Source of the DNA: an uncultured Candidatus Saccharibacteria bacterium
GTDB taxonomy: Bacteria; Patescibacteriota; JACMRA01
Assembly: GCA_964631275.1 (NCBI GenBank)
Contig: CAZVWQ010000002.1
Location: 26,206-90,205, forward strand
Reading direction: 5' to 3'
Length of the DNA: 64,000 nucleotides
Each line of letters opens with the position of its first letter. The first letter of the stretch is position 1. The position numbers were made by a program, and so were the translations under genes. Shown here piece by piece: positions 3,842 to 51,276 of the stretch. The notes beneath the pieces were generated by a model. That model was not told the DNA's origin, searched no databases, and was given only the letters and a program-made list of their open reading frames with translations.

Positions 3842-4273
3842 ACTGCTGTTTAAAAGATAGATGGTTTAGCTTAAGCCCAAATCCTGTAATTTTTATAATA
3901 TGGCTATGGCAAATTCGTGGTTTAAAGTTTGTTTACTTATTTTTAGATAAAAAGTAGTCAAAATTAGCTTATTTTGAGATACAATTAATAAACGATTGGT
4001 CCAAAAGATAAAAAAATAATTAAAAATATCTAAAATTAGTTTTTAAGTTTGAATTAAGTTGTAAAAAATTAAAATGGTTGTTATAATTCATTTATAGATA
4101 GTCCTTATAAAGATTTTCGAAACTTCTTATAGTATAAAGTATTTTACCAAATTTTAGCTAAGCTATACAGCTATAATTTTATTTTCAAACAAAACTTATA
4201 GTAGGTCTAAAATCTCTAACTTATGCTTAGATGCCTATTAATAAACAAATAAGTTTTAATTTATTTTTGTAAA

Positions 4274-5598
4274 ATGAATTTTGAATATCCAGTTAGTCCT
4301 GATAGTAAGCATAATCCTGACATAACTGAAAAAATTAGGAGTCTGCTAAATGCAATTTTTACAGATCATCCAAGTTTTGAAGAGTTAAGTTTTGAAGAGT
4401 TAAAAGAATTAAAAGAATTAATTACTAGACTACGATCAAAATTATTAGAAGTTATTAAAGAATTTGCAATAAGTGAAAGTAATCAAGGTTTTATCTTTAT
4501 CGATAATAATGATAATGATAATACATTCTCTATTAATCCTGATAGGTATGCTAGCATACCAAATGATAAAAATTCTAAATTTCAATACAGGGGTTGCCAG
4601 ATTTATTTTGGGGAAAAAATTCAAGATTAAATGCTTGTGTAGACAATGAATTATTAGATAAGCTTAAAAATGGGGAAAGAATTGAATTTGCTAACCTAGG
4701 CCCAATTTCAAAAATATTTATTTTGCAGTATGTTTTTAGTTTAATTTTAGAATTAGCATCTGAAAAACTAGACTTGGAAAATGCTATAAATTTTTATGAG
4801 TTTCTTTTAAATCTTAAAGAGAGTGATAATGATAATGATAATGATAATAGTTTTAATCTTTTAGAAGGTTTTAAATTATCTGATTTAAGACCTCCCTATC
4901 TATATCATATAAAACAAAAATATTCTGATAAAATGATTCCTTTTGTTGCAAGGGTTGTTGGATTTAACCTTAGTAGGCTTGAAATTCCTCATCTACCTTT
5001 TGCTGTTGTATCTTTAAATTTTAAATCATCATTGGAGATTACTACTATGACTTCTCGTGAAGTTGATCCTAACTTTGCTTTTGAAGGACCTGACTTTATA
5101 ATCCTTATTTCAGGAAAAAAGACAGATGAAGGGTATAAAGCTTTTTTATATAAAAAAGATAGTAGTAATAATAATTATAAATTTACTAAAGTTAATGAAG
5201 GCTACTTATATCTAACTGAAGCCCTTTACCTCTGTTACGATAACGAACTTATTAGTAAACTTAATAGCGACATTCAAGATTCGCTTACTATAGATAGTAT
5301 TAAAACTCTTTTAAGAAGAATATTTGACGAAGATAATAATACTAGAATTCCTAACGCTTTACTACTTCATAGAGCAATAACACTGAGGTTTCCTCCTTTT
5401 ATGAAAATATTAGAAGAAGCAAGAGATGAGCTACCTGTAGAAAGCCATGGGTGGGAACCTAAACCTCCAAGTCATTTATTTGAAAAGTTTATTATTCCTA
5501 TTATTATTGCACTTGTGTTTTATATTTTTTTTTACTTTTCTTCTAGAGAAGAAGTCCCCTCTTTACAAGAACCTCCAACTAACACACAAACACAATAA
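4274..5598 (+). pseudogene. hypothetical protein with a C-terminal TM helix; two overlapping ORFs consistent with one gene frameshifted at a G-run near 4590
   Basis: ORFs 4274-4630 and 4594-5598 overlap. Both contain DNDNDN tracts. GGGG at 4590-4593 lies in the overlap. FIIPIIIALVFYIFFYF is near the C-terminus. Confidence 0.4.
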
Positions 5599-5867
5599 AA
5601 ATAATATTTGCATGTTTATACTGAGTTTAGCTTTGACTTTTATTTATATTTAGAAAACCTATTTGATTGCTTGTCTTTTAAAACAAAGATTTTTAGTTGT
5701 TAGATATTAAATCAGCTTGTTTTTAAGGAATTTGAGAATACCTAAAATGTCTAAATTGTGCATAGATTAAGTATATTTTTGATTTTCGTATTCAAAATCA
5801 ACTACCAACGATTTCTTAATTTTTTACTTTTAAACTGCTAAAAATTTCAAACATGTCTATAGTCTAT

Positions 5868-6179
5868 TTATTCAAAAATAGAGCTAGAAGAATTTTGGAT
5901 AGCCTCTAAAGATTTAGATTCACTCTTAGGTAAGGATTGTTGAAATCGGGTCTCTAGATTTATATTTTTAGGTAGCTCTTTTGCTCTAATATTTATTTCT
6001 GGTTCAGAATATTCAGGAGAAAAAGGCCCAAAAACAGACATGGCCCCAAAAACAGCAAGGAATAATATTGTTACAAGCATAGTAACTACAGATAAGATAG
6101 TTCTAAAATCAGTTTTTCTTTTTTCTGGTTGTTTTTGCATTTGCTGAAGTGGTTGTATTTGTATTTGTTGTTGTGACAT
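5868..6179 (-). CDS. small single-pass membrane protein (hypothetical)
   Basis: ORF with a Q-rich N-terminus and the TM helix ILSVVTMLVTILFLAVFGAMSVF. Confidence 0.45.
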   Translation of the reverse strand: MSQQQIQIQPLQQMQKQPEKRKTDFRTILSVVTMLVTILFLAVFGAMSVFGPFSPEYSEPEINIRAKELPKNINLETRFQQSLPKSESKSLEAIQNSSSSIFE

Positions 6180-6256
6180 GTTATAATTATACTTTATATA
6201 ATTAAAGTTATCAACCTTGGCTAGCTATTTATAAATAATCTTAGTTGCTTTTTATC

Positions 6257-6369
6257 TTAATTCAATCCGTAGTATTACCCTAAATTTAGCCTTTCATAAG
6301 TAAATAAATTCTTTATTTAAGGTAAATTCTTAATGGGTAATTACTGCAATGATTAGCCCAAAGGGTATA
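6257..6369 (+). repeat. repeat family A
   Basis: ..caatccgtagtattaccctaaatttagcctttcataagtaaataaatt..ggtaattactgcaatgattagcccaaagggtata. It lies about 65 nt beyond the gltX stop. Confidence 0.75.
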
Positions 6370-6435
6370 AAAATAAACAAAAAATAGTTTGCTCTTTTTA
6401 TAGTTTAAAACTATTAACCCAAAAGATAAGTTAGT

Positions 6436-7410
6436 TTAAATTTCTGTATTCTCCAAATACACCTCTTTATCAGTACCTGGATTCCAACCAAGAAAAACTA
6501 AATAATTAAGGATAGCTTCTGGTAAAAATCCTTCATCTAAATAGCTCTGCATATCTACATTACCATCTCTTTTGGATAATTTTTTGTTCCCAGTTTCACC
6601 TAAAATAAAAGGTAAATGAATATAAGCAGGAACTTGACCCCAATAGTCAAAAAACATAGCTGTGTGCCTAGCAATACTTGGATACCACTCTTGAGCTCTA
6701 ATTACCAAAGTAGTTTTCATTAAGTAATCATCAACTAGATGTGCCAAGTGATAGGTTGGATATCCATCAGACTTTAGAATTGTGAAATCTTCTTCTAGGT
6801 TAAGATCAAATTTGGTCTTGCCAAGTAACTCGTCCTTGCACTCAATAGTTTTATCCCTTTGTAGCTTGTATTTGAGTACTGGTTTGGATTGATCTTTCAG
6901 ACCATCTTTTAGACTTTGAGTTAGTTTTTGTTGGTTAAATCTTTCTTGGCAAATTTTATAATAATTAATTGCTTTTTTGTTGATTTTTTTAATTTCTAAT
7001 AATTCTTGTTTATCTTCTTCGGTTAGATAACTCCAGTAAGCTAAACCCTTATCAAGCAAATTTTGAGCATGTTCGTGATATATATCTAATCTTTTGGATT
7101 GAATGTAAGGCCCAAAGTCTCCTTTTTCGTAGATATCATAAAATTCATCATAAACTCCACCCTGTGAATCATCAGAAATAGGATCAAGTAAAGTAATACC
7201 TTCTTTGGGTAATAAATGTAGCTGATCTAGAGTTTCTAGAAGCTTACGAGCTGAGTCACTTTGCAAACGGTTGCGATCTGTATCTTCTAGCCTGAGATAC
7301 CACTGACCTTGATTTTTGTTAGCAAATAAAGCTGTAAAGAGTATTTGTCGAGTTGTACCTAAATGCAAGTATCCAGTAGGTGAGGGTGCCTGCCTAGTTC
7401 TAAAAGTCAT
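6436..7410 (-). CDS. gltX: glutamyl-tRNA synthetase catalytic core, lacking the anticodon-binding domain (truncated)
   Basis: APSPTGYLHLG (HIGH-like), LRLEDTDRNR, KLSKR (KMSKS) and GFLPEAILNYLVFLGWNPG. TAA follows 14 aa later. Start chosen at ATG 7410; the ORF track starts at TTG 7446. Confidence 0.8.
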   Translation of the reverse strand: MTFRTRQAPSPTGYLHLGTTRQILFTALFANKNQGQWYLRLEDTDRNRLQSDSARKLLETLDQLHLLPKEGITLLDPISDDSQGGVYDEFYDIYEKGDFGPYIQSKRLDIYHEHAQNLLDKGLAYWSYLTEEDKQELLEIKKINKKAINYYKICQERFNQQKLTQSLKDGLKDQSKPVLKYKLQRDKTIECKDELLGKTKFDLNLEEDFTILKSDGYPTYHLAHLVDDYLMKTTLVIRAQEWYPSIARHTAMFFDYWGQVPAYIHLPFILGETGNKKLSKRDGNVDMQSYLDEGFLPEAILNYLVFLGWNPGTDKEVYLENTEI

Positions 7411-7577
7411 ACTCACAAAGTTTTTTTGATTAAATAATTTAGTCAAGAATATTTTTAGACCATGATGTAATTCTTATAACTTTATAAATTTTTCATAAGC
7501 TTACTTGACTAGATTTGTTTTTGTTACAAGTTGTGTTTACTAGATTTAATTTCGACTAGTGAGTCAGTTTTATCGGT

Positions 7578-7695
7578 ATTAATCTTGTCTCAAAATAAGT
7601 TAAAAATAACTAGTTTATATCTTGAAATAAAAAAATTCATTATTTTAGCTGAATTGGCAGTTTTTTATTATTTGTATAAATAAAAGGTAAATCGA
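7578..7695 (+). repeat. repeat family C, divergent copy (terminus attaatcttgtctcaaaa)
   Basis: Shares its terminus with families B and C; the interior is only loosely similar. Confidence 0.35.
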
Positions 7696-7799
7696 TTATT
7701 TTTTCTAATTACGGAACAAGCCCATTGAATGACTTTTTGATTAACATTTATTATTTTTTTTGCCTTTTTTGATTTTTTAATCTAGACTCTATAATCTAT

Positions 7800-10220
7800 A
7801 TGCTAATTATCGTTGAGTCCCCAGCTAAAGCTAAAACTATCTCTCACATCGTCGGTAAGAATTATACCGTCAAAGCTTCTATTGGCCATATCAGGCAACT
7901 CTCAGATGATAAAAAAACTAAAGATGGTAAGCCTTTAGAAATCAATGGCATTGATATTCAAAATAACTTTAGACCAATCTACGAAATCGACGAAGACAAA
8001 AAAAAAGTAGTTAACGAACTAAAAAAATTAGCTAAAGAAAGTAAGGAAATCTTATTTGCTACTGATGAAGATCGTGAAGGAGAAGCTATTAGTTGGCACT
8101 TAGCTAAGGTATTAAATCTAGATCCAGCTAAAATCAAAAGATTAGTTTTTCATGAAATTACAAAATCAGCCTTAGAAAAAGCTCTTAAAGAAACTAGAAA
8201 CTTGGATTTGAATTTAGTTTCAGCTCAACAAGCTAGGCAAGTGTTAGATAAGATCGTTGGATACAAATTATCTCCGGTTTTATGGTCAGTAATGAGCAAT
8301 TATCGATTGTCAGCAGGTCGAGTACAATCTCCAGCTCTAAAGATAATCGTTGACAGAGAAAATGAAATTGAAGCTTTTATAGCCGAAGAGTATTGGGAAA
8401 TTTATGGTCAACTGCAACCAAATAAATCGCCTGAAACACAAGTTAATAAATATTTAGATAAAACTGAAGAAAAAACCGAATTCAAAAAAAAGTTAGATGA
8501 AGAAGGATTTTTAAAATTAACTTATAGTCAAGGTAAAAAAGCTTCAGAAATTCTCAAAGACGAAAAAACTACTGATAAAGTTACAGATAGTTTGACCAAA
8601 AATCCAGAATTTAGAGTTCAGGAGGTTCAATCCAAAACTGAAAGAGTTAAGCCTAAACCACCTTTTATTACTTCTACTCTCCAGCAAGCAGCTAGCTCTA
8701 AGCTTGGATTTACTCCCAAAAGTACTATGAGAGCAGCCCAAAAACTTTATGAAGGAGTAGCTATAGATGGTCAGCAACAAGCTCTAATTACCTACATGAG
8801 AACAGACAGCGTAAATCTATCGGCTGAATCAATTCTTAAAGCTAGAAGCTATATTAAATCTAAATATCCAAAGTTTCTTCCAGAAAAGCCAAATCATTAT
8901 ACCTCTAAATCTCGTAACGCTCAAGAAGCTCACGAAGCTATTAGGCCTGTTGACCCGACTCTCTCTCCAGATAGGCTTAAAGGTAAAATTGATTCCAACC
9001 TTTTTAGACTTTACGAACTAATATGGAAAAGAATGATTAGCAGCCAGATGACTTCAGAGGTTCGTCAAAGATTTACTTTTGAATTAGAAAATCAAGTCAA
9101 AGATAAATTCCAAGGGTCTGTGGCCTGGACTACTGAACCTGGTTTTCAGGCGGTATGGTCAAATAAAAAAGTCGAAGAAGCTAGTGAGTTAGATAAACTT
9201 TACCAAAAAAATCAAAAATTTAATCTTAGAGAATTAAACCTTTTACAAAATTTTACTAGCCCACCTAGCCGCTACTCTCCAGCAAGTTTAATAAAAAAAA
9301 TGGAAGAGTTAGGAATTGGACGTCCGAGTACTTATGCTACGATCATTTCTACGCTTCACGATAGGCAATATGTCGAAGATAACCCTAAGACCCTAATCCC
9401 AACTTTTTTAGGACGTAAAGTTTGTGAAGTATTAGTTGATAATTTTGAACAGGTAACTAATAGCGAATTAACTGCTGAATTAGAAAATAATTTAGATAAA
9501 ATTTCTCGAGGTGAAAGTAAATACGAAAAAGTTTTAGATGAGTTTTGGTCAGAGTTTAAGAAGCAAGTAGAAGAACGAGAACCAAAGATAATTGAAAATA
9601 AAAACAAATATAGAGAAAGTCAAACTAAGGTTAAAGATCCTAAATATGGCAATGAAATGGTCTTGAAGTTTGGTAGATTTGGGGCTTATTATGAAAATCC
9701 TAATTATCCCGAATCTCGCTATCCAGTTGATTTTAGAGAAAAAGCTGAAAAATTAGAACAAACTAAAAAAGAACTAGGCGAAGATCTAGAAAATATTAAG
9801 TGTCCTGAATGTGGAGCTGAAATGGAACTTAAAGTTGGTAGATTTGGTGAGTATTTTCAGTGCTTAGATGTCAAAGATCATAAATTCCCAAAAAACTTTA
9901 GGGAATATAATATTGCTCTTAAAGAAGCTAAAGATAAATTTAGCAGCCAAACAAAAAATAAAACCTGCGAAGTGTGTGGCAAAGATTTGATCGTTAGAGT
10001 TTCTAAATCTAGTCTTAAACCATATATTGCTTGCCCAGATTATAAAGTAGGTAATAAACATACTGTAATTAACGTAAACTACGGAGATTGTCCAGAATGT
10101 CAAAAGCATGGTCGAAAAGGCAAATTAGAACTAAAGAATTCCAAAAAAGGAAACTTTTTAGTGTGCAATTTACCCAAAAAAGAGTGTGGCTATGTTGAAA
10201 TTTACAGTCCAAAAAATTGA
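7800..10220 (+). CDS. topA: DNA topoisomerase I with C-terminal CxxC zinc-ribbon repeats
   Basis: MLIIVESPAKAKTISHIVG (Toprim), ATDEDREGEAISWH, YMRTDS (active-site Tyr region) and four CxxC..CxxC pairs in the tail. Confidence 0.95.
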   Translation: MLIIVESPAKAKTISHIVGKNYTVKASIGHIRQLSDDKKTKDGKPLEINGIDIQNNFRPIYEIDEDKKKVVNELKKLAKESKEILFATDEDREGEAISWHLAKVLNLDPAKIKRLVFHEITKSALEKALKETRNLDLNLVSAQQARQVLDKIVGYKLSPVLWSVMSNYRLSAGRVQSPALKIIVDRENEIEAFIAEEYWEIYGQLQPNKSPETQVNKYLDKTEEKTEFKKKLDEEGFLKLTYSQGKKASEILKDEKTTDKVTDSLTKNPEFRVQEVQSKTERVKPKPPFITSTLQQAASSKLGFTPKSTMRAAQKLYEGVAIDGQQQALITYMRTDSVNLSAESILKARSYIKSKYPKFLPEKPNHYTSKSRNAQEAHEAIRPVDPTLSPDRLKGKIDSNLFRLYELIWKRMISSQMTSEVRQRFTFELENQVKDKFQGSVAWTTEPGFQAVWSNKKVEEASELDKLYQKNQKFNLRELNLLQNFTSPPSRYSPASLIKKMEELGIGRPSTYATIISTLHDRQYVEDNPKTLIPTFLGRKVCEVLVDNFEQVTNSELTAELENNLDKISRGESKYEKVLDEFWSEFKKQVEEREPKIIENKNKYRESQTKVKDPKYGNEMVLKFGRFGAYYENPNYPESRYPVDFREKAEKLEQTKKELGEDLENIKCPECGAEMELKVGRFGEYFQCLDVKDHKFPKNFREYNIALKEAKDKFSSQTKNKTCEVCGKDLIVRVSKSSLKPYIACPDYKVGNKHTVINVNYGDCPECQKHGRKGKLELKNSKKGNFLVCNLPKKECGYVEIYSPKN

Positions 10221-25013: not shown

Positions 25014-25496
25014 ATGTCCATTCCAAAAAACTCACAAAAATTACCTATAAAAATCTATGAGGATCAAGAGTTTGGTTTGGAGATTAGAATCGATGAGCAG
25101 GGCGAGACTCTATGGCTAAGTCAATCTCAGATTGCCGAACTTTTTGGTAAAAACAGGTCAGTTATTAACAAGCATATTAAAAATATCTATTTAGAAGAAG
25201 AGCTGATGGAAAAATCAACCTGTGCAAATTTTACACAAGTTCAAACCGAAGGAGCAAGAAAGGTAAAAAGAAGTATTCCTCATTACAATTTAGACGTTGT
25301 CTTATCAGTTGGATACAGGGTCAATTCCAAAAAAGCTACCAGATTCCGCCAGTGGGCTAATTCCATACTCAAAGATTATCTCCTCAAAGGTTATAACATT
25401 CCTAGTATTGAAGATTTGCAAAGTTATCCTTGGGGTCACACGAGTTTTTCAATTGAAGACCCAGATCAAAACAAACTTAAATTCTTTACACAATAA
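25014..25496 (+). pseudogene. RhuM-family N-terminal fragment fused to a VOC/glyoxalase-like C-terminal tail (chimeric relic)
   Basis: LWLSQSQIAELFGKNRSVINKHIKNIY..LSVGYRVNSKKATRFRQWANSILKDYLLKGY is the RhuM N-half. The tail YPWGHTSFSIEDPDQNKLKFF resembles a VOC C-terminus. Confidence 0.6.
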
Positions 25497-25538: not shown

Positions 25539-26261
25539 ATGCCCATATCAAAAAATTCAGAAACCAAACTAAAATATTTTGAAGACACTTATTTATTCCA
25601 GTCTCAAGCTACTGTACTTGATATAATTGAAGATGGAAACTTCCCTGATAAGCAGATTTTAATTTTGGATCAAACTATTTTTTATCCACAAGGTGGTGGT
25701 CAGCCCAGTGATACTGGAATTATAGAGTCTAAAGATGGTAATTTTGTTTTTAAAGTTGAAAAAGTTGCTTTTAATTCAAATGGACAAGTCTACCACATTG
25801 GAGAATTTATAAAAAATAAATTTAAAATTGGAGAGTCAGTTAAACTTAAAATAGATAAAGAAAAAAGGGTTTTAAATGCAAAAAACCATACAGCTGGGCA
25901 TTTGATTGATTGGACAGTTGAAAGTTTGAATTTAAATTTGAAAGCTAAAAAAGGTTTTCATTTTCCCCAAGGTTCATATGTGGAATATCAGGGGGAATTA
26001 AGTGAAGATAAAGAAGAGCTAGCTAAGAAAATTGAAAAAAGAGCAAATCAGATTATCTCAGAAAATCCTAAAATTGAATTTGTATTTGAAAATAACAAGC
26101 ATGAAAGCGGTAAACCAATGCGAATTATGAAAATTGAAGGCTATCAAAATTGCCCTTGTGGAGGAACCCATGTTAAAGAAGCTAAAGAAATTGGTATTCT
26201 TACAATTAGAAAAATTAAAGCTAAAAAAGGGAATATTAAAATTTCCTATCAGGTAGGCTAA
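25539..26261 (+). CDS. alaX: AlaX-type alanyl-tRNA editing protein
   Basis: HTAGHLI and CPCGGTHV zinc/editing motifs. 240 aa. Confidence 0.85.
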   Translation: MPISKNSETKLKYFEDTYLFQSQATVLDIIEDGNFPDKQILILDQTIFYPQGGGQPSDTGIIESKDGNFVFKVEKVAFNSNGQVYHIGEFIKNKFKIGESVKLKIDKEKRVLNAKNHTAGHLIDWTVESLNLNLKAKKGFHFPQGSYVEYQGELSEDKEELAKKIEKRANQIISENPKIEFVFENNKHESGKPMRIMKIEGYQNCPCGGTHVKEAKEIGILTIRKIKAKKGNIKISYQVG

Positions 26262-26330
26262 AGCCACTCATTACAAAGAAAAATTATTCATTATTCACTA
26301 TTATTTATTAACTATTAATTAAAAAACACT

Positions 26331-28742
26331 ATGTCTATCTCAAAAAACTCAAAAAACTTACAACTAGATACTAAACGTCACTCTTTTGCTCATTTAATGG
26401 CAGCTGCCGTAGGGAAAATGTTTCCAGAAGCTCAATTTGGAGTCGGTCCAGTTATTGAAAATGGCTGTTATTACGACTTTATTTTACCCAGAACTTTAAT
26501 CCCAGAAGATTTACCACTACTTGAAAACAAAATCAAGGAAATGTTAAAACAACCTCTGGTTTTTAAAGTCCAAGAAATGGAATTACAGGAAGCTGTTTTA
26601 CTTTTTGAAAAAATGAATCAACCACTAAAAGTTGAACTCTTAAACGATCTTGCAACTCGTGGAACAACTGCTATGAGTGAGGAGGAGAAAGAGTCCTTCC
26701 TTGAGGAAGGTGCCCGTAGGGCGGAAGGTGTTAACACTTCATCAAAAAACAAACTAGGAATTTTACCTTACAATCCAGAATTAAAAGAAAAAGCCAAGGA
26801 ACTTAGAAAAAATTCTTCTAAAATAGAGGTTAGGTTTTGGTGCGAATTAAAAAATCACCCAGAATTATCCAAAATTGATTTTCATAGGCAAAAACCAGTT
26901 TTAAATTATATTTTAGATTTTTATATTCCAGAATTTGGAATTGCTGTTGAACTAGATGGCGAGAGTCATAACGAACAGATTGAATATGATGAAAAAAGAA
27001 CTCAAGAATTAGAAAATTTAGGTTTGAAAGTGCTTAGATTTACAAACGAAGAGATAAAAAATAACTTAGATGGGGTTTTTGCAGAAGTTAATAAAGAAAT
27101 TGATTTAATTAAAAAAACAGATACTGTCTCTGATAGTCCTTCCAAGAGAACACACCCCGTCAGCTCCGCTGACACCCCTCTGGAGAATAACACACCCCGC
27201 CCTACGGGCACCCCTCTCAAGAGGGGACTTCCTAAAATTACCATCTACCGTCTGGAGAATGAAAAAACTGGCGAGGATTTGTTTGTAGATTTATGCAAAG
27301 GTCCGCATGTGGAAGATGTTAAAGAGCTTAAAGGCTTAGGTTTTTCTCTAGACAAATTTAGTGGCTCCTACTGGCGAGGGGATCAAGCCCGCAACATCCA
27401 AATGCAACGAATTTATGCCTTGGTTTTTGATACAAAAGAGGAGTTAAAAGAGTTTCAAGAAAAAAGGAAGCTAGCCCAAGAAAGAGATCACCGCAAACTC
27501 GGTCAAGAGTTAGAAATTTTTATGGTCTCTGATGAAGTTGGTTCTGGACTGCCACTTTATCTGCCAAACGGAGCGGCGATTAGGCAACTTTTAGAAAAAT
27601 ATTGTTATCAAGAAGCCAAAAAATCAGGTTATCAGTATGTTTATACCCCGCATATCGGAAAGGAGGATTTGTTCAAAAAATCTGGGCATTTAGATCACTA
27701 TCGCGACGGAATGTTTGCACCGATTGATATGGTCAATCTGGATGGTGAAGGTGCGGATGAGTCTGGTAAAACTGAGAAGTTTTATCTAAAACCGATGAAT
27801 TGCCCAATGCACCATAATATTTATTTAAATACTCCAAAAAGCTACCGTGACCTGCCTTATCGTTTGTATGAATACGGCACCGTGTATCGCTACGAGGAGT
27901 CTGGAACTTTGTCTGGGATGATCAGAGTGCGAGGTTTTACTCAAAATGATGCCCATGTTTATTGCCAGCGAACTCAGCTAAAAGAGGTGATCGGCGAGGC
28001 ACTTAACCGCTTCATCAAGGCTTACAACGACATCGGAATCACTGATTATAAAATGAGGTTTAGCCTTCCTGATTTTGTGAATGAAAAAGAGAAATTTGGG
28101 GAAGAGACTCAAGAATGGGTTGAGGCGGTTAGTGCTATGAGACAGGCACTAGATGAGCTGGGTGTGGATTATTATGATGCGGTTGGTGAAGCAGCTTTTT
28201 ATGGACCAAAAATTGATATTCAGGTTAAAAATGTGAACGGCAAAGAGGATTCACTTTCAACTATTCAAGTGGATTACTCCATCGCTCCAAAGTTTGGAAT
28301 TACCTTTAAAAACGACAAAGGCGAGGAGGAAGTGCCAGCGATTATTCATATGGCTTTGATGGGATCCGTGGACAGGTTTATGGCATTTATGCTGGAGATG
28401 ACCGGTGGAAGATTACCTCTCTGGCTAGCTCCAACTCAAGTCAAGATTTTGACTATTAATAATGAAGAGGAGACTTTGGAATATGTAGCTAAAATCAAAG
28501 CAATCCTGGATGAGACAGTGCTTATGAAACCGCTAAAATATAATGAAATAAGGTATGAAGTAGATGATAGACAAGAATCACTTGGCAAAAAAATCCGAGA
28601 AGCTACGATGATGAAAATCCCAGTGCAATTAATCGTCGGGCCAAAAGATGTTCAGGCAGGTGAGGTTAGTGTCAGGACACAACAGGGGGAGAGTAAGGTT
28701 GGGTTGGAAAGTTTACAAGAATATTTAAGAAATTTAGAGTAA
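26331..28742 (+). CDS. thrS: threonyl-tRNA synthetase (no TGS domain) with a 179-codon in-frame insertion in the editing domain
   Basis: HSFAHLM, DLCKGPHV, YWRGD, RDHRKLG, class II motifs (FYLKPMNCPMH, GMIRVRGFTQNDAH) and an anticodon-binding C-terminus. Confidence 0.95.
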   Translation: MSISKNSKNLQLDTKRHSFAHLMAAAVGKMFPEAQFGVGPVIENGCYYDFILPRTLIPEDLPLLENKIKEMLKQPLVFKVQEMELQEAVLLFEKMNQPLKVELLNDLATRGTTAMSEEEKESFLEEGARRAEGVNTSSKNKLGILPYNPELKEKAKELRKNSSKIEVRFWCELKNHPELSKIDFHRQKPVLNYILDFYIPEFGIAVELDGESHNEQIEYDEKRTQELENLGLKVLRFTNEEIKNNLDGVFAEVNKEIDLIKKTDTVSDSPSKRTHPVSSADTPLENNTPRPTGTPLKRGLPKITIYRLENEKTGEDLFVDLCKGPHVEDVKELKGLGFSLDKFSGSYWRGDQARNIQMQRIYALVFDTKEELKEFQEKRKLAQERDHRKLGQELEIFMVSDEVGSGLPLYLPNGAAIRQLLEKYCYQEAKKSGYQYVYTPHIGKEDLFKKSGHLDHYRDGMFAPIDMVNLDGEGADESGKTEKFYLKPMNCPMHHNIYLNTPKSYRDLPYRLYEYGTVYRYEESGTLSGMIRVRGFTQNDAHVYCQRTQLKEVIGEALNRFIKAYNDIGITDYKMRFSLPDFVNEKEKFGEETQEWVEAVSAMRQALDELGVDYYDAVGEAAFYGPKIDIQVKNVNGKEDSLSTIQVDYSIAPKFGITFKNDKGEEEVPAIIHMALMGSVDRFMAFMLEMTGGRLPLWLAPTQVKILTINNEEETLEYVAKIKAILDETVLMKPLKYNEIRYEVDDRQESLGKKIREATMMKIPVQLIVGPKDVQAGEVSVRTQQGESKVGLESLQEYLRNLE
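26694..27230 (+). mobile_element. inverted-repeat-bounded element encoding a DUF559/Vsr-like endonuclease domain, translated in frame within thrS
   Basis: Left repeat 26694-26732 tccttccttgaggaaggtgcccgtagggcggaaggtgtt. Right repeat 27189-27230 aacacaccccgccctacgggcacccctctcaagaggggactt. Core FHRQKPVLNYILDFYIPEFGIAVELDGESH..LRFTNEEI. 537 bp = 3 x 179. Confidence 0.7.
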
Positions 28743-28745
28743 ATT

Positions 28746-29612
28746 ATGTTTTTATTAGACAATCATACAGACATTTTGTTAGGGGATTGTCTGCAGGAAC
28801 TTAAGAAAATTGAAGATGAATCTGTTCAACTCATTATAACCTCTCCGCCATATGCAGATCAACGAGCTAAAACTTATGGTGGAATTCATCCTGACAAATA
28901 TGTAGAGTGGTTTTCACCAATTGCTAAAGAAATGTTACGGGTACTTAAACCTGATGGAACTTTTATTCTAAATATTAAAGAAAAAGTAGTTGAAGGGGAA
29001 AGGCATACCTATGTTTTAGAGTTAATTTTAGAGATGAAAAAGCAAGGCTGGTTATGGACAGAAGAATTTATCTGGCATAAAAAAAATTGCTATCCTGGCA
29101 AATGGCCAAATAGATTTAGAGATAGTTGGGAAAGACTTTTACAGTTTAATAAAAATAAAAAGTTTTCCATGTACCAAGATGAGGTTATGGTACCTATGGG
29201 TGATTGGGCAAAAACTAGATTGAAAAATTTAAGTAAAACTGATAAAATTAGAGATAATTCTAAAGTTGGTAGTGGTTTTGGTAAAAATATTTCTAATTGG
29301 GTTGGTAGAAATATGGCCTACCCAAGTAATGTTTTGCATTTAGCTACAGAAACTAGTAACAAAAATCATAGTGCTACTTTTCCTAAAGAGCTACCAAGTT
29401 GGTTTATCAAGCTTTTTACAAAAAAAGGAGACTTGGTCTTAGATCCATTTTTGGGTAGTGGAACAACTTGCCTTGCTTCGCTTGAACTTGAAAGGAATTC
29501 AATTGGGATTGAGATTAAAAAAGAGTATTATGAACTTGCTTTAGAAAACATCCATATTAAAAGAGAAGAGTTATTTACAAAAAATAAACAAAATGAATTA
29601 TGTCTAATTTAG
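28746..29612 (+). CDS. type II DNA methyltransferase (beta-class, SPPY motif; N4-C or N6-A)
   Basis: IITSPPYADQ (motif IV) precedes DPFLGSGTTCLAS (motif I). Starts 3 nt after the thrS stop. Confidence 0.88.
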   Translation: MFLLDNHTDILLGDCLQELKKIEDESVQLIITSPPYADQRAKTYGGIHPDKYVEWFSPIAKEMLRVLKPDGTFILNIKEKVVEGERHTYVLELILEMKKQGWLWTEEFIWHKKNCYPGKWPNRFRDSWERLLQFNKNKKFSMYQDEVMVPMGDWAKTRLKNLSKTDKIRDNSKVGSGFGKNISNWVGRNMAYPSNVLHLATETSNKNHSATFPKELPSWFIKLFTKKGDLVLDPFLGSGTTCLASLELERNSIGIEIKKEYYELALENIHIKREELFTKNKQNELCLI

Positions 29613-30334
29613 ATTATCAAAAAGTTGAAACTTTTATTCAAAACAATATTATTACAGTTTTTTATGATAAAAGAATAATAAATTTAGAAAAAATTCAACT
29701 CAATAAAATACTCAAGTCTAAAAATCCATACCTTCTTAAAGCCAAAAATATTGAAACTGCTAGTGACTTAATTAAATCAGTTTTAGATGCTGTAATCTCT
29801 TCTTCTGAAGAAACTATTTTTGGAAATTTATTAGAAGAATTGGCTATATTTGTAAATGAGATTGTTTACGATGGTAAAAAATCAACTGCTAAAGGAATAG
29901 ACTTGGAGTTTGAAAAAGGTGGTATTTTATATTTAGTAGCTATTAAATCAAGACCAAATTGGGGTAATAGTAGCCAAATTAAAAAAATGATATCAGATTT
30001 TATTTCTGCTAAAAAAACTTTAAGAACTAGTAATTCTAACAATAAACAAATTGAATTTATTAATGGTTGCTGTTATGGCAAAGATAACAATCCTGATAAA
30101 GGAAATTATTTAAAATTGTGTGGTCATAAATTTTGGAGTATAATTTCTGGGGACGAGGAATTTTATTTAAAAATTATCAAACCCATTGATAAGCAGAGCA
30201 AACAAAAAGATGAGGTTTTTAAAGAAAAATATGCAATGAAGTTAAATTTATTGACAGGGGAACTATTAGAAAATTATTGCATAAATGGAAAAATAAATTG
30301 GGAACAAATTTTAGAATTTAACAGTGGTAGCTAA
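29600..30334 (+). CDS. putative type II restriction endonuclease (family not recognised)
   Basis: Overlaps the methyltransferase gene by 13 nt. GIDLEFEKGG..VAIKS could be a PD-(D/E)xK-like core. Confidence 0.45.
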   Translation: MSNLDYQKVETFIQNNIITVFYDKRIINLEKIQLNKILKSKNPYLLKAKNIETASDLIKSVLDAVISSSEETIFGNLLEELAIFVNEIVYDGKKSTAKGIDLEFEKGGILYLVAIKSRPNWGNSSQIKKMISDFISAKKTLRTSNSNNKQIEFINGCCYGKDNNPDKGNYLKLCGHKFWSIISGDEEFYLKIIKPIDKQSKQKDEVFKEKYAMKLNLLTGELLENYCINGKINWEQILEFNSGS

Positions 30335-30352
30335 GTATTGTATTATCTAAAT

Positions 30353-30484
30353 ATCCCAGTTCAGCTCATCGTCGGGCCAAAGGATGTTCAGGCAGGTGAG
30401 GTTAGTGTCAGGACACAACAGGGGGAGAGTAAGGTTGGGTTGGAAGAATTAAATCAATTTTTAACAAATTTAAGTCAAAAATAA
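30353..30484 (+). pseudogene. displaced copy of the thrS 3' end (copy 2)
   Basis: 30368-30445 differs from 28632-28709 at 1 of 78 nt. Reads IPVQLIVGPKDVQAGEVSVRTQQGESKVGLEE..* in frame. Confidence 0.88.
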
Positions 30485-30487
30485 TTT

Positions 30488-30982
30488 ATGAATGATGTAA
30501 TCTTTATAACTGGCTGTCCGACTAGTGGTAAGTCCACTATTTCCAGTTTGTTGCAACAAAAGCTACAATCTCCAATGTTTGAATTTGGCTGGATTCCAGA
30601 ATTTCGTCTTTTGGAGGTTGATCAAAAATATGAAGATGAGGAGAAATTAAGTTTTGAAAATCTAAATTTGGTTGTAAAAAATTATGTTAAACACGGCTAT
30701 TCCAATATAATTATAACGGATATACGGGATGACCTATTGAAACAAGTACCGACAATTTATAATGAATATTCATACAAAATATTTACCCTAATCCTATCTG
30801 AAGAAGAGATAAAATTTAGAATAGACAAAAGAAAAATCGAAAAAAATGGTTTTAGTAACCTTCAATTAGCGATTAAGTCAAATCAATTTTGGAGTGATTC
30901 AAACTTTAAAAATCAAACTAAAATATTTGCCGAGAATATGAATCCTGAGAAAATATTGAATATTATTTTGAATCAATTATAA
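30488..30982 (+). CDS. P-loop NTPase / small kinase-like protein
   Basis: ITGCPTSGKSTIS Walker A at the N-terminus. 164 aa. Starts 3 nt after the copy-2 stop. Confidence 0.65.
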   Translation: MNDVIFITGCPTSGKSTISSLLQQKLQSPMFEFGWIPEFRLLEVDQKYEDEEKLSFENLNLVVKNYVKHGYSNIIITDIRDDLLKQVPTIYNEYSYKIFTLILSEEEIKFRIDKRKIEKNGFSNLQLAIKSNQFWSDSNFKNQTKIFAENMNPEKILNIILNQL

Positions 30983-31240
30983 AGATTTTGCTTTTGAGGT
31001 TTGGTGTTAGGTGGTTGACAACTTAGGCGAGTTTTTAGAGGGTTTAGATTTATAATATCTAATCACATTACAAAGTTAGGAAAGAGTACATTTTCTGAAT
31101 AAGTTATTTGAATTAATTGTATTTTTAAGGTGCTGGTTTTTTTAATTCCTACCCAAATTATCTAATAAATTTATCAGTAATTTTGTTTATCTATGAAGGA
31201 TTTTTTAAAATAAAACATTTTTTAACTAACTATCAATTAT

Positions 31241-31528
31241 ATGTATCAAGACTTAATAAATCAAGCACCTCAACTTTCATCAGAGTTTATAGCTGCAATT
31301 GCTGCCTCATCTCCTTGGGCCTTGCAAAAGGCTGGAGAGTCTGCGGTTGGAGAAGTTGTCAAAGACGGCTGGAGCTGGCTAAAGAGTGTTTTTAGCAAAA
31401 AGGGTAAAGATCAGGAATTGGATAATTTAGTTGAAAGACCAAAAGATCCCAAGATCCAGGGCAGGTTAGAACTTATTTTGGAAGATTATCTTAAGGAAAA
31501 TCCAGAAGAAATGGACTATACCCATTAG
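31241..31528 (+). CDS. small helical hypothetical protein (possibly an orphan N-terminal adaptor-like domain)
   Basis: ORF only. GWSWLKSVFSKKGKDQELDNLVERPKDPKIQGRLELILEDYLKENPE. Confidence 0.4.
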   Translation: MYQDLINQAPQLSSEFIAAIAASSPWALQKAGESAVGEVVKDGWSWLKSVFSKKGKDQELDNLVERPKDPKIQGRLELILEDYLKENPEEMDYTH

Positions 31529-31659
31529 AAACTGGGGTCAAGTTTTAAATCAATTGACAATTATCTTTGAAGAAAGGATTACTAAATACATTAATCTTAG
31601 TGATGTCTGAAACTAAGAACTTACACGGAATTGGTTAGGGTCTCTATTAAAATCATCTT

Positions 31660-32220
31660 ATGAAAAAATTGTACTCGTATAAAATTATCGCTGTATTATT
31701 TATTATACCATTTTTAGTAAATTGGGTGTTTTTGTTATTTTTTGGCAAACCTTATTTATTCATTTTTATGCCTAAATATATATTACACCCTTTAATTTCA
31801 GGTTTTTATACTCAATTTATTTATAGCTTAATTATTCTGGTTTTATTTCTTTTGTTAGTATTCAAAGCTAAACTAAAACTAACTTTAATTTCTAGTCTGT
31901 TTATTGCAATTTCTGTATTTATTGCAATTTTTAACTTACTTGGATCAACTTCTTTCTTCCATGAAAAAGGGTGTTCAGATGCAGTTTACCAATCAGGCCT
32001 TTCAAGAGATATCAACTATGATGTTTTTGTACCAACCAACAATCGTTTAATTTATCAAAGAATTGCAACATGGGAAGATGTAAATGGTACTATTTTAGTT
32101 AGGATAAGCAATAATGAAGAACTCTTAAAACAGGATCAAAAATTAGAATTAGTAAAATGTTCAGTTGAAGCCGCAGTCGATAGCTATGGAGATTATGATA
32201 TTGAGCAAATAGATTTTTAG
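31660..32220 (+). CDS. multi-pass membrane protein (hypothetical)
   Basis: Four hydrophobic helices followed by a soluble tail. Confidence 0.5.
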   Translation: MKKLYSYKIIAVLFIIPFLVNWVFLLFFGKPYLFIFMPKYILHPLISGFYTQFIYSLIILVLFLLLVFKAKLKLTLISSLFIAISVFIAIFNLLGSTSFFHEKGCSDAVYQSGLSRDINYDVFVPTNNRLIYQRIATWEDVNGTILVRISNNEELLKQDQKLELVKCSVEAAVDSYGDYDIEQIDF

Positions 32221-32251: not shown

Positions 32252-32350
32252 ATCGCCGTGCTAGAATATATTCAGGCAGGGGAGGCTAGTGTAAGGACAC
32301 AAGAGGGAGAGAGTAAGGTTGAGTTGGAGGAGCTACAAAGCTATTTATAA
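32252..32350 (+). pseudogene. displaced, diverged copy of the thrS 3' end (copy 3)
   Basis: atcgccgtgctagaatatattcaggcaggggaggctagtgtaaggacacaagagggagagagtaaggttgagttggag.. Reads ..IQAGEASVRTQEGESKVELEELQSYL*. Confidence 0.7.
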
Positions 32351-49719: not shown

Positions 49720-51276
49720 ATGATTACCAAAATTTTAACAGCAACTAATTTAGGACTGCAAACTCAACTAGTAGAATGTGAGATTGATATTTCACCTGGT
49801 ATGCCGGCTATGGTTGTAGTTGGTTTGCCAGATAAAGCTGTTCAGGAAAGTAGAGAAAGAATCAGAGCAGCAATTAAGCAGAGTGGATATGACTTCCCTT
49901 TAGGAAAAATCACAATAAACCTGGCTCCAGCTGGAATTGCTAAGTCTGGATCTAGTTTTGATTTGCCAGTTGCTTTAGGAATTTTACATTCGATTGGATT
50001 TGTACTAAAAGAAATTAGCAACAAGAGTCTCTTTTTGGGCGAGTTATCTCTAGATGGTAAACTTAGGCCAATTAAAGGTGTTCTGACTTTGTGTTTATGG
50101 GCTAGCCAAAATGGGTACACAGAAATATTTATCCCCAAAGCTAATTTTCAAGAAGGTTCTTTGGTTAAAAATATTAATATTTATGCGGTAGAGACTTTAA
50201 CTGAAATTGTTGATTATTTGAACCAAAAAATAAAATTAAAAAAACTAGAACCGGTAGATCTAAAAGACTTTTCTCAAAAAATTAATTTAGATAAGATTAT
50301 AGATGAAAATGGTTTATATCTCAATGATTTGGCCTACGTTCGAGGACAAAAAGTAGCCAAAAGAGGCTTAGAAATAGCGGCTAGTGGTGGGCATAATGTG
50401 CTGTTTATAGGACAGCCCGGAAGTGGAAAAACTTTATTAGCCAAAAGCTATCCAACAATTTTACCACGTATGACCGAGAGAGAAATTTTAGAAGTAACTC
50501 AGCTTTATTCTATTAGTGGCCTGCTTGATGATGGAGAAATTATTACTCAAAGGCCTTTCCGTTCACCACATCACTCTAGCTCTCATATCGCTTTAGTAGG
50601 AGGTGGGTCAAAACTTAGGCCAGGAGAGATTAGTCTTGCCCATCGAGGAGTTTTATTTTTGGATGAATTTCCAGAATTTAGCCGAGAGACTTTAGAAGCT
50701 CTAAGGCAACCTTTAGAAGATGGTAGGGTCACCATTTCTCGTGCTTCAGGATCGGTGGAATATCCAAGTAGGTTTTATTTACTGGCCGCAGCCAACCCCA
50801 CACCTAGCGGATTTGATCCAGATAATCCAGATGCTCTTAGTAGGCCTCAAAATCGCTCGGCTATTAACCGTTATCAAGCTAAGTTTAGTGGGCCTATCTT
50901 AGATCGAATAGATATCCAAGTAGAAGTTAATAGGCCAAAAAAAGAAGAATTACAAAACAAAGAAATGTCTGAACCTAGCTCGCAAGTAGCTAGTAGAGTT
51001 CAAAAAGCTAGGGATATACAAAGTCAAAGGTTTCAGAACGAAACTATCTTTACTAACGCAGAGATGAGCCTTAAATTAATTGAAAAATATTGCCAACTCG
51101 ATGTAGAAAGTAAAAATCTCTTAGATGCTGCTATCGATAAGTTCAGAATGTCAGCTCGTAGTTACATGCGAATTCTAAAACTATCTCGAACAATTGCTGA
51201 TTTAGATGGTTCTGAAAATATCTTATCTAAACATTTAGCTGAGAGCTTGCAGTACCGAGGTAGGTGGGGAGGTTAA
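49720..51276 (+). CDS. comM: YifB/ComM family Mg-chelatase-like AAA+ ATPase
   Basis: Lon-like N-domain, GQPGSGKT, VLFLDEFPEF, C-terminal helical domain. 518 aa. Confidence 0.93.
   Translation: MITKILTATNLGLQTQLVECEIDISPGMPAMVVVGLPDKAVQESRERIRAAIKQSGYDFPLGKITINLAPAGIAKSGSSFDLPVALGILHSIGFVLKEISNKSLFLGELSLDGKLRPIKGVLTLCLWASQNGYTEIFIPKANFQEGSLVKNINIYAVETLTEIVDYLNQKIKLKKLEPVDLKDFSQKINLDKIIDENGLYLNDLAYVRGQKVAKRGLEIAASGGHNVLFIGQPGSGKTLLAKSYPTILPRMTEREILEVTQLYSISGLLDDGEIITQRPFRSPHHSSSHIALVGGGSKLRPGEISLAHRGVLFLDEFPEFSRETLEALRQPLEDGRVTISRASGSVEYPSRFYLLAAANPTPSGFDPDNPDALSRPQNRSAINRYQAKFSGPILDRIDIQVEVNRPKKEELQNKEMSEPSSQVASRVQKARDIQSQRFQNETIFTNAEMSLKLIEKYCQLDVESKNLLDAAIDKFRMSARSYMRILKLSRTIADLDGSENILSKHLAESLQYRGRWGG

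Follow-up and report, generated by a model that had tools for sequence, protein, structure and literature searches.

How does an essential gene come to hold a complete nuclease gene within its own reading frame, and how does the enzyme tolerate it? The question is raised by thrS, which encodes threonyl-tRNA synthetase (ThrRS), on a 64-kb stretch of 31% GC from an uncultured Candidatus Saccharibacteria bacterium (contig CAZVWQ010000002.1). This whole stretch is called the window below, and its positions serve as coordinates. An earlier note, made from the letters alone, had placed a nuclease of the DUF559/Vsr type, bounded by GC-rich inverted repeats, in frame inside the ThrRS editing domain. 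Comparison with relatives makes it likely that the insert is a selfish nuclease cassette, translated together with thrS and tolerated in a surface loop of the enzyme. Three features were not foreseen in the note: across the lineage of this ultra-small bacterium the loop is a hot spot that takes up cargo of many kinds, a second hot spot exists in the same protein, and the repeat ends are a modular two-hairpin unit that also occurs alone.

A nuclease in frame inside thrS

The gene and its insert are laid out as follows.

26331-28742, forward strand: thrS, a single open frame of 803 amino acids (aa) without a TGS domain; host parts 26331-26686 and 27230-28742
26694-27230, forward strand: the in-frame insert, comprising the complete DUF559 cassette with the modules at its ends; 537 nt, 179 codons, no Met, no stop
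26703-26756, forward strand: N-side linker, predicted disordered; residues 125-142, mostly encoded by the left repeat
26757-27128, forward strand: folded DUF559 domain in the structural model; about residues 143-266
26781-27101, forward strand: DUF559 nuclease core (Vsr-like, PD-(D/E)xK), matching Pfam PF04480 and 3hrl; ThrRS residues 151-257
27129-27221, forward strand: C-side linker, predicted disordered; residues 267-297, encoded by the right-hand modules

The 803-codon frame passes without interruption from host to insert and back (..ELLNDLATRGTTAMSEEEKE / SFLEEGARRAEGV...TPLKRGL / PKITIYRLENEKTGEDLFVDLCKGPHV.. in the translation of the open reading frame, ORF), and the predicted junction peptides of the fused protein are ..EEEKESFLEEGAR.. 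and ..GTPLKR/GLPK... When the window is compared with three relatives by blastn, host homology ends at 26686 and is taken up again at 27230-27234; the limits first proposed for the insert are only a few bases away. The DUF559/Vsr-type core that the note had read from the translation is found by profile search over the whole domain: the insert matches PF04480 at positions 3-108 of the 109 in the profile, with an E-value of 3.1e-29 (101.4 bits, cut-off 20.6). It also matches 3hrl, a DUF559 protein of solved structure, with an E-value of 2e-14. Its only Pfam matches are DUF559 and MTES_1575, and no HUH/Y1 transposase of the IS200/IS605 kind is among them. A match to NF007294 (E 1.7e-19, 70 bits) remains under that equivalog model's cut-off of 218, and models of defence systems detect generic nuclease-fold similarity only. 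The nuclease columns D-F, E-x-D-G-x-x-H and R are invariant or nearly so in 16 embedded copies, and they are visible in all of the 20 embedded and 40 free-standing DUF559 sequences compared. The tethered nuclease is probably active. Since the insert has no initiation codon, it can be made solely as part of ThrRS.

An AlphaFold2 model of the 803-aa protein, built on 111 sequences, is consistent with an insert that projects from a loop of the editing domain as a separate fold. Its mean predicted local distance difference test score (pLDDT) is 90.5, ThrRS and DUF559 both score above 90, and residues 125-142 and 267-297 are the sole segments below 50. The repeat-encoded peptides are thus predicted to be disordered linkers that join two well-folded domains, and no interface between DUF559 and ThrRS is indicated in the model. 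Searched with Foldseek, the model superposes on the full-length enzymes of Staphylococcus aureus and Escherichia coli (1nyq, E 3e-57, and also 1qf6).

The host enzyme

The host part carries the Pfam domains tRNA-synt_2b, HGTP_anticodon and tRNA_SAD, which stand for a class II core, an anticodon-binding domain and the N2 editing domain. It scores 546.9 bits with the thrS equivalog model TIGR00418, whose cut-off is 383.65. The editing motifs HSFAH (HxxxH) and CKGPH (CxxxH) and the zinc-site motifs MNCPMHH, QNDAH and AIIHMA are intact in the translation. Against P0042 (locus L029), which among relatives that share the window's nuclease lineage is the closest, the ratio of nonsynonymous to synonymous substitution (dN/dS) in the host parts is 0.06-0.09, in a comparison where dS is saturated. 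These data support a ThrRS that is otherwise intact and functional, with strong purifying selection acting on its sequence. A pseudogene is rejected on the intact frame, the motifs and the low host dN/dS.

The note had also allowed that the insert inactivated the enzyme. More broadly, this copy of thrS could be inactive or redundant with another one elsewhere, or the insert could be an assembly chimera. No more than 64 kb of the genome is in view, and the related contig L001 holds two tandem thrS genes, both with inserts. Against this stand an 803-codon frame kept open in a 31%-GC genome, the selection and motif data just given, the lack of a second thrS within the 64-kb window, and the same architecture assembled independently in many samples and projects. 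We do not favour inactivation, and hold this whole group of explanations to be the least credible of those considered.

Two loops of ThrRS as insertion hot spots

With the whole window ThrRS as query, hundreds of matches from Patescibacteria (the candidate phyla radiation, CPR) are retrieved, for instance from Peregrinibacteria, SR1 and Gracilibacteria bins; searches of genome and metagenome collections yielded 6 and 22 loci, respectively. For other genomes, the sequence set contains short flanks only. The ThrRS-DUF559 fusions came out with this query, unlike with the insert alone, which returned free-standing DUF559 proteins and no ThrRS fusions, a result attributed to the word-index limits of the search tool. 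The window protein and its best 120 relatives (121 sequences) were each compared with an insert-free relative, and inserts of at least 15 aa were counted. Such inserts are present in 51 of the 121, nearly all of them at two loops, and many of the relatives carry extra Pfam domains. Among the 91 sequences with clear anchors, the window's own loop, or site A, is occupied in 40 and site B, just after DLCKGPH, in 14. A minor site C follows AAAVKQ.F.

All site-A cargos lie between ..SEEE(K/R)ADFE(N) and (L)PKITIYR... As the note had stated for other ThrRS enzymes, the loop is short (SEEERADFGEG-LKITIYR) in relatives that lack an insert. Their empty-site DNA reads GAT TTT GGC GAG GGT / TTG AAA ATC in L008, L023 and L025 (empty-site sequence GAAGAAAGAGCAGATTTTGGCGAGGGTTTGAAAATCAC). 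The cargos comprise DUF559, GNAT, NUDIX, HAD, SAM-methyltransferase, DUF952 and unknown folds, single or combined; DUF559 occurs together with NUDIX and with GNAT. Up to three domains are inserted in one protein, and the largest ThrRS reaches 1381 aa (P0112). Most of the GNAT, HAD and NUDIX cargos at site A are without the hairpin modules described below. Aligning the window protein with close relatives, as the note had advised, reveals the loop to be empty or differently filled (identities to the window are those of the catalytic part).

P0047, 93% identity: unknown insert of 116 aa at site A
P0044, 92% identity: GNAT at site A
P0041, 91.6% identity: a different DUF559 lineage at site A
P0045, 88% identity: insert of 502 aa, mostly GNAT, at site A
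P0046, 87% identity: site A empty
P0042 (L029), 81% identity: the window's DUF559 lineage at site A

In these sequences, the content of site A is uncoupled from host relatedness. The loci L029 and L041 stem from a single sampling project and share 92.8% of their nucleotides, yet their site-A content is wholly replaced. Judged by the alignments, a given site is filled in some close relatives and unfilled in others, as is typical of a homing-type element. An ancestral conserved domain and an assembly artefact are both rejected, as relatives have this site either empty or with another filling and its content is swapped between L029 and L041.

DUF559 is embedded in 20 ThrRS proteins, the window's included. 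In a neighbour-joining tree of these domains and 40 free-standing homologues, calculated without support values, the embedded copies fall into at least four lineages, three of which are represented at site A as well as at site B. Identity between lineages is about 35-40%.

One further arrangement was observed in L001, a contig binned as Limisphaerales whose ThrRS is CPR-like. The first of its two tandem genes (4001-7399) has a 502-aa GNAT-rich insert at site A. In the second (7470-8622) the insert is a NUDIX domain, and one hairpin module stands at the left end of this insert.

The two-hairpin modules

The ends of the window's insert are copies of one module, M, which consists of two hairpins, H1 and H2.

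26692-26733, forward strand: left terminal repeat, module M in reverse orientation; H2 26695-26700/26705-26710, H1 26712-26715/26719-26722; translated as SFLEEGARRAEGV; covariance model 55.5 bits
27188-27229, forward strand: right terminal repeat, module M; H1 27196-27199/27205-27208, H2 27211-27216/27221-27226; translated as NTPRPTGTPLKRG; covariance model 61.2 bits
27135-27187, forward strand: degenerate extra module, a left-end fragment AGTCCTTCCAAGAG (27135-27148) and then a partial M copy (27149-27186); recognised by direct repeats, fold and nhmmer
27159-27164/27168-27173, forward strand: H1 of the extra module, whose H2 is broken

The inverted-repeat arms, which the note had described as imperfect and GC-rich, measure 42 nt and are 79% complementary. 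A 24-nt core of one arm matches the other with 3 mismatches, where shuffles of the 64-kb window give an expectation of 0.00. Folding agrees that each repeat has its own hairpin: for H2, the left arm has ccttcc-ttga-ggaagg and the right arm cccctc-tcaa-gagggg; H1 reads gccc-tac-gggc, and tcagc-tcc-gctga is the hairpin of the extra module. An additional hairpin module had been seen at 27150-27176; its hairpin is real, but the right side holds about 1.5 extra degenerate modules rather than one. The ends do stand out from their surroundings, with three GC-rich islands in the element among the few in the window (the others are a tRNA gene, 50781-50810 and one giant ORF).

The general form of M is AACAC(A)CCCC, then H1, a short hairpin of variable sequence, then CACCCCTC-loop-GAGGGGACT. 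The modules were aligned with a covariance model (R1) built from nine instances; MAFFT misplaced the variable H1. The same two-hairpin fold is found in all 12 instances tested, with H1 stems as varied as GCCC/GGGC, CAGC/GCTG, CAGAC/GTCTG, CCGAC/GTCGG, CAGCC/GGCTG, CAGTC/GACTG and GTCC/GGAC. In the alignment 91% of the cells are paired and 9 of 10 pairs have changed on both sides; none of 500 shuffles equals this, and slid controls are far lower. At the level of these alignments, it appears that hairpin formation itself is selected. The modules are also unusually open to translation, 67% of their frames being open versus 39% for random 42-mers from the window.

Across the 167 kb searched, the covariance model finds modules on both sides of every DUF559 examined. 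Its other convincing matches are two solo modules in thrS and an intergenic one in L039; matches upstream in L036 are weak. Solo modules stand in frame at site A in L043 (36 nt) and at site C in L030 (57 nt). Two arrangements of the flanking modules are seen: head-out, where H2 is the hairpin distal to the gene (window, L032, L007 and L042), and head-in, where H2 is proximal to it (L037, L031, L030 and L038). On both sides of every embedded DUF559 lie peptides of the type PLxRG, SPLEGWQPQVDGV or TPRQPAVATPQEGN, which correspond to GC-rich hairpin modules in the DNA wherever this was checked (L007, L029, L030, L031, L037 and L038).

Further copies of the repeats were another point to be searched for. 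Within the 64-kb window there is no second module and no second DUF559 by repeat search (up to 3 mismatches), GC-island scan, nhmmer or covariance model, a weak match at 1561-1590 (E 0.04) being treated as noise; beyond it, nearly the same repeats flank free-standing DUF559 genes in L032 and L042.

A separate observation concerns L030, where about seven tandem hairpin modules (1480-1770) lie to the left of the embedded DUF559 of P0041. The array translates as repeats of ..TPNIKDFDPL(K/E)ENPQSS... Modules can thus amplify inside a gene without loss of frame.

Paired arms at the two ends of an insert raise the question of whether it is removed before the enzyme matures, either from the RNA, by splicing or by cutting and religation through a stem formed by the 42-nt arms, or from the protein, by intein-like or proteolytic excision. 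The arms could indeed pair and bring the host junctions together, the length of the insert is divisible by three, and the first insert residue is Ser. At the RNA level, each arm folds locally into its own hairpins, and no Rfam family, group I and II introns included, matches at an E-value of up to 1 within 26300-27600 on either strand, with about 130 nt of non-ORF sequence available. An intron or a described RNA element is rejected on the lack of an Rfam match. At the protein level, as the note had stated, the junctions bear no intein signature: no Hint or intein domain is found (Pfam, E up to 0.01), the C-junction ..KRGL/PKIT has neither His-Asn nor a nucleophile, and the DUF559 flanks are predicted to be disordered rather than to adopt a Hint fold. 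An intein is rejected as well, in spite of the Ser on the N-side. Moreover, the frame is open through both flanks in 20 of 20 embedded copies, which a spliced element would not need, the modules are flipped in the four head-in loci, and other site-A cargos are without any repeats. Removal of the insert is therefore very improbable.

The same unit outside thrS

In L032, from a 36%-GC genome, a free-standing DUF559 gene lies directly after glmS. Its product is 45% identical to the window's nuclease and its repeats are nearly those of the window (left repeat ..TCCCCCCTTAGAAGGGGGTGCCCGTAGGGCGGGGGATGTTAC; the right end is duplicated). In L042, from a Parcubacteria genome (GCA_000992955.1), an intergenic DUF559 is flanked by 41-nt repeats of the same sequence family, 88% complementary, and an array of partial modules is also present. 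DUF559 genes on plasmids of Pseudanabaena, Picosynechococcus and Deinococcus are bounded by inverted repeats of a simpler make, a C-run plus a hairpin (35-40 nt, 74-100% complementary). Two repeat pairs are nested on the Pseudanabaena plasmid (L049). The covariance model is weak on the cyanobacterial and Deinococcus flanks because the modules there are without H1; these repeats were shown by direct inverted-repeat detection. A blastn search of the plasmids with the module consensus gave one weak match, at chance level. Many free-standing CPR DUF559 ORFs read through their own modules. Fusions in frame with proteins other than ThrRS are few among the best 120 of 3015 profile matches, a sample rather than a census: these matches are mostly free-standing, and the fusion partners are RhuM, a helix-turn-helix protein of the XRE type and an HsdS-like protein. 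At the level of sequence, the DUF559-plus-module unit is demonstrably a discrete, horizontally distributed entity.

Several other observations were made at such loci. RhuM is fused in frame to a module-flanked DUF559 in P0182 and P0202. On a Synechocystis plasmid, an upstream hairpin only is seen by eye. The DUF559 genes on the Picosynechococcus, Pseudanabaena and Deinococcus plasmids are annotated as 'endonuclease domain-containing protein', and no repeat feature is listed in the stretches of L047-L050 (these three plasmids and the Synechocystis one) that were looked at. L032-L035 represent one glmS-DUF559 locus from four samples, whose copies differ only by 5-6 substitutions within 22 nt of glmS (1502-1523); these clustered changes create stop codons in three of the four copies. 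They may reflect localised hypermutation, or else an artefact of the assembly or of the consensus.

The two-hairpin module recurs, its GCCCTACGGGC core identical, in IMG/VR contigs of 43-64% GC, where it is intergenic and either solo or in an inverted doublet.

L044: 321-367
L045: 2686-2809
L046: 2647-2692, 3373-3418 and 8819-8865

No DUF559 lies near these modules in the stretches of L044-L046 that were looked at. The module family is thus much wider than the CPR and is not always found beside the nuclease.

The free-standing units bear on another explanation, in which DUF559 is an accessory domain of ThrRS exapted to the benefit of the host, perhaps binding or cutting nucleic acid in tRNA handling, quality control or defence, and the repeats are relics. 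It would account for purifying selection on an inserted domain that lacks its own start codon (dN/dS of the DUF559 core about 0.19 versus L029), for the catalytic-type motifs kept in 20 of 20 embedded copies, and for the many different enzymatic domains found in the same loop, beside the editing-site CxxxH motif. It fits poorly with a patchy distribution that is uncoupled from host phylogeny, empty sites in close relatives included, and with several unrelated nuclease lineages at the site. Nor does it explain why hairpin ends that covary stay GC-rich within a gene of 31% GC, why the same unit stands free in intergenic DNA, or why the linkers are predicted to be disordered and no ThrRS interface is indicated in the model. 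We regard exaptation as unlikely.

How the cassette may move and persist

The first of the note's two ideas, that of a mobile element encoding an endonuclease which the enzyme tolerates on its surface, finds support in the polymorphic site, the free-standing relatives, the two-domain fold and the selection on the host gene. For the selfish cassette that we consider likely, the following course can be proposed. The DUF559 nuclease would cut the unoccupied site, or near it, or the hairpin modules, and the cassette would be copied in by recombinational repair, that is, by homing or by allelic gene conversion between related strains. As thrS is essential, selection would leave only in-frame, stop-free and structurally harmless loop insertions. 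The GC-rich modules, which are poor in stops, would encode linkers rich in Pro, Gly and Arg, and the nuclease would fold independently and hang off the enzyme without harm. Cassettes at sites A and B would be gained, lost and exchanged much faster than the host gene diverges.

The main contender differs from this course solely in the mode of movement. In it, the unit is a cut-and-paste or copy-out terminal-inverted-repeat (TIR) element, with DUF559 as a transposase-like enzyme and the hairpin modules as its ends, comparable to the REP/RAYT system (repetitive extragenic palindromes and their associated tyrosine transposases) or to IS200; sites A and B are then the survivors of wider insertion. 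The terminal inverted repeats stay conserved although the nucleases that they flank share no more than about 45% identity, and the covariation points to structure, not sequence, as the recognised feature. Solo modules and arrays resemble MITEs, the miniature transposable elements with inverted repeats; related DUF559 lineages occupy two thrS sites and intergenic DNA, and L049 has nested repeat pairs. Against it, no target-site duplication is present; the same codon boundary is used in many hosts by many cargos, a pattern more in keeping with allelic exchange or with homing to a specific site; relative to the gene, the modules are found either way round; and the sequence at hand holds single copies only per genome. 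To our knowledge, no DUF559 protein is known as a transposase, and no report of one was found in the literature. Movement as a TIR element is on balance improbable, albeit a serious candidate. Homing-like conversion is somewhat favoured over hairpin-directed transposition, because many cargos share one codon boundary and target duplications are lacking. With covarying hairpins, solo copies, nested pairs and both orientations, a REP/RAYT-like or MITE-like mechanism retains some probability.

Several points weigh against a selfish, translated and mobile cassette. Translation of the insert and its retention in mRNA and protein are what we infer. Without a second module or DUF559 copy in the window, recent mobility in this genome is not supported. 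Comparison of filled and empty sites reveals no target-site duplication, and the two opposite module arrangements are not explained by a simple fixed-end transposon. The lineage calls depend on a tree without support values, and the covariation was measured on an alignment fitted to the covariance model itself. Saturated dS makes relative ages unreliable and leaves the direction of selection alone informative. Lastly, the insertion of the module-less GNAT, HAD and NUDIX cargos is not attributable to DUF559 with certainty; that they were captured during repair of nuclease breaks, with the nuclease later lost, is speculation. As for the activity of the nuclease and the way in which the cassette moves, both are what we infer from sequence.

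A wider proposal can be made tentatively, as a possibility with less than an even chance of being right: DUF559 may be the nuclease of a widespread, hitherto undescribed class of hairpin-ended mini-elements, whose breaks and their repair in these ultra-small bacteria insert or exchange foreign domains (nucleases, GNAT, NUDIX, HAD, methyltransferase) in frame at two loops of the ThrRS editing domain. If true, domain shuffling would have a new route, and selfish genes a new strategy for being expressed from an essential gene without splicing. In the literature, of which our coverage is incomplete, we found no description of DUF559 as a repeat-bounded element, of an in-frame nuclease cassette in an aminoacyl-tRNA synthetase, or of a ThrRS hot spot. 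The broader picture, with DUF559 elements as a general class and a protein-embedded cassette site, stands a real chance of being categorically new.

The occurrence of hairpin-bracketed DUF559 in candidate-phyla bacteria, cyanobacteria and Deinococcus suggests a role for a large family of unknown function. A ThrRS loop that accepts at least six unrelated kinds of domain in close relatives is a natural system for studying domain insertion, permissive sites in aminoacyl-tRNA synthetases and the activity of a tethered nuclease, and the empty and filled alleles are ready substrates for assays of DUF559. Annotation pipelines would call such genes plain thrS and miss the embedded element.

Genes around thrS

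Directly upstream of thrS is a truncated RhuM-family gene (25014-25496; 160 aa against a profile of 252 positions), and between the two, at 25539-26261, a free-standing AlaX-like Thr/Ala-tRNA editing protein is encoded. Downstream, the last ~123 nt of thrS (28614-28736) recur at 30350-30472 and 32252-32328, with 88.6% and 84% identity, and each copy sits after an inserted block of genes. The first block (28746-30334) contains an N4/N6 DNA methylase and an EcoO109I-like restriction enzyme, and the second (30488-32220) an AAA/kinase-like gene and an ORF. From its sequence, this looks like serial cassette integration at the 3' end of thrS, with the gene end restored each time. In two relatives, L039 and L040, a type I restriction-modification system lies immediately after thrS.

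Comparison with known systems

Like inteins with homing endonucleases, the thrS insert is a nuclease-encoding element, probably selfish and translated with its host, that is placed in frame in an essential gene and is present or absent at a fixed site. Unlike them, it has no Hint domain or junction residues and is presumably never removed, and it has inverted hairpin repeats at the DNA level. With the Vsr-like (EDxHD) homing endonucleases such as I-Bth0305I it shares a Vsr-type PD-(D/E)xK nuclease in mobile insertions of conserved genes. Enzymes of that type are free-standing or occur in introns, inteins and 'fractured genes' (PMC2677866, PMC3239194). The thrS nuclease differs from them in being a DUF559 (PF04480) protein, for which a sequence match to the I-Bth0305I structure was not detected, and in being flanked by hairpins with no intron or intein.

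The Rickettsia palindromic elements (RPEs), and other palindromic coding repeats, are likewise short hairpin-forming selfish DNA within genes, which persists there because it lies in frame and its translated peptide is exposed at the protein surface (PMC1779305, PMC10969869, PMC2996958). The solo M modules of 36-57 nt in thrS behave in the same way. The M modules are distinct from RPEs in being GC-rich two-hairpin units of ~40 nt, not of 100-150 bp, in occurring in other phyla, and in bracketing an in-frame nuclease gene. We know of no enzyme linked to RPEs.

In REP/REPIN-RAYT systems the enzyme is of the HUH/Y1 type; here it is a DUF559 nuclease, the unit lies inside coding sequence, and hundreds of copies are not seen in the available sequence. 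The resemblance is in the architecture: the gene of a DNA-acting enzyme is bracketed by inverted GC-rich hairpin repeats that covary and that occur elsewhere as solo copies and doublets. From MITEs and small TIR transposons the unit is set apart by its variable module orientation, its apparent single-copy state in the data at hand, and the lack of a recognised transposase family and of target duplication. What it has in common with them is that it is small, ends in terminal inverted repeats, and occurs in nested copies and as non-autonomous solo derivatives.

The selfish elements known from essential genes either splice out, as introns and inteins do, or are very short translated palindromes, as in Rickettsia. 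The thrS case joins both ideas: a complete nuclease gene stands in frame, its repeat ends would serve as flexible linkers, and the whole is apparently kept without splicing.

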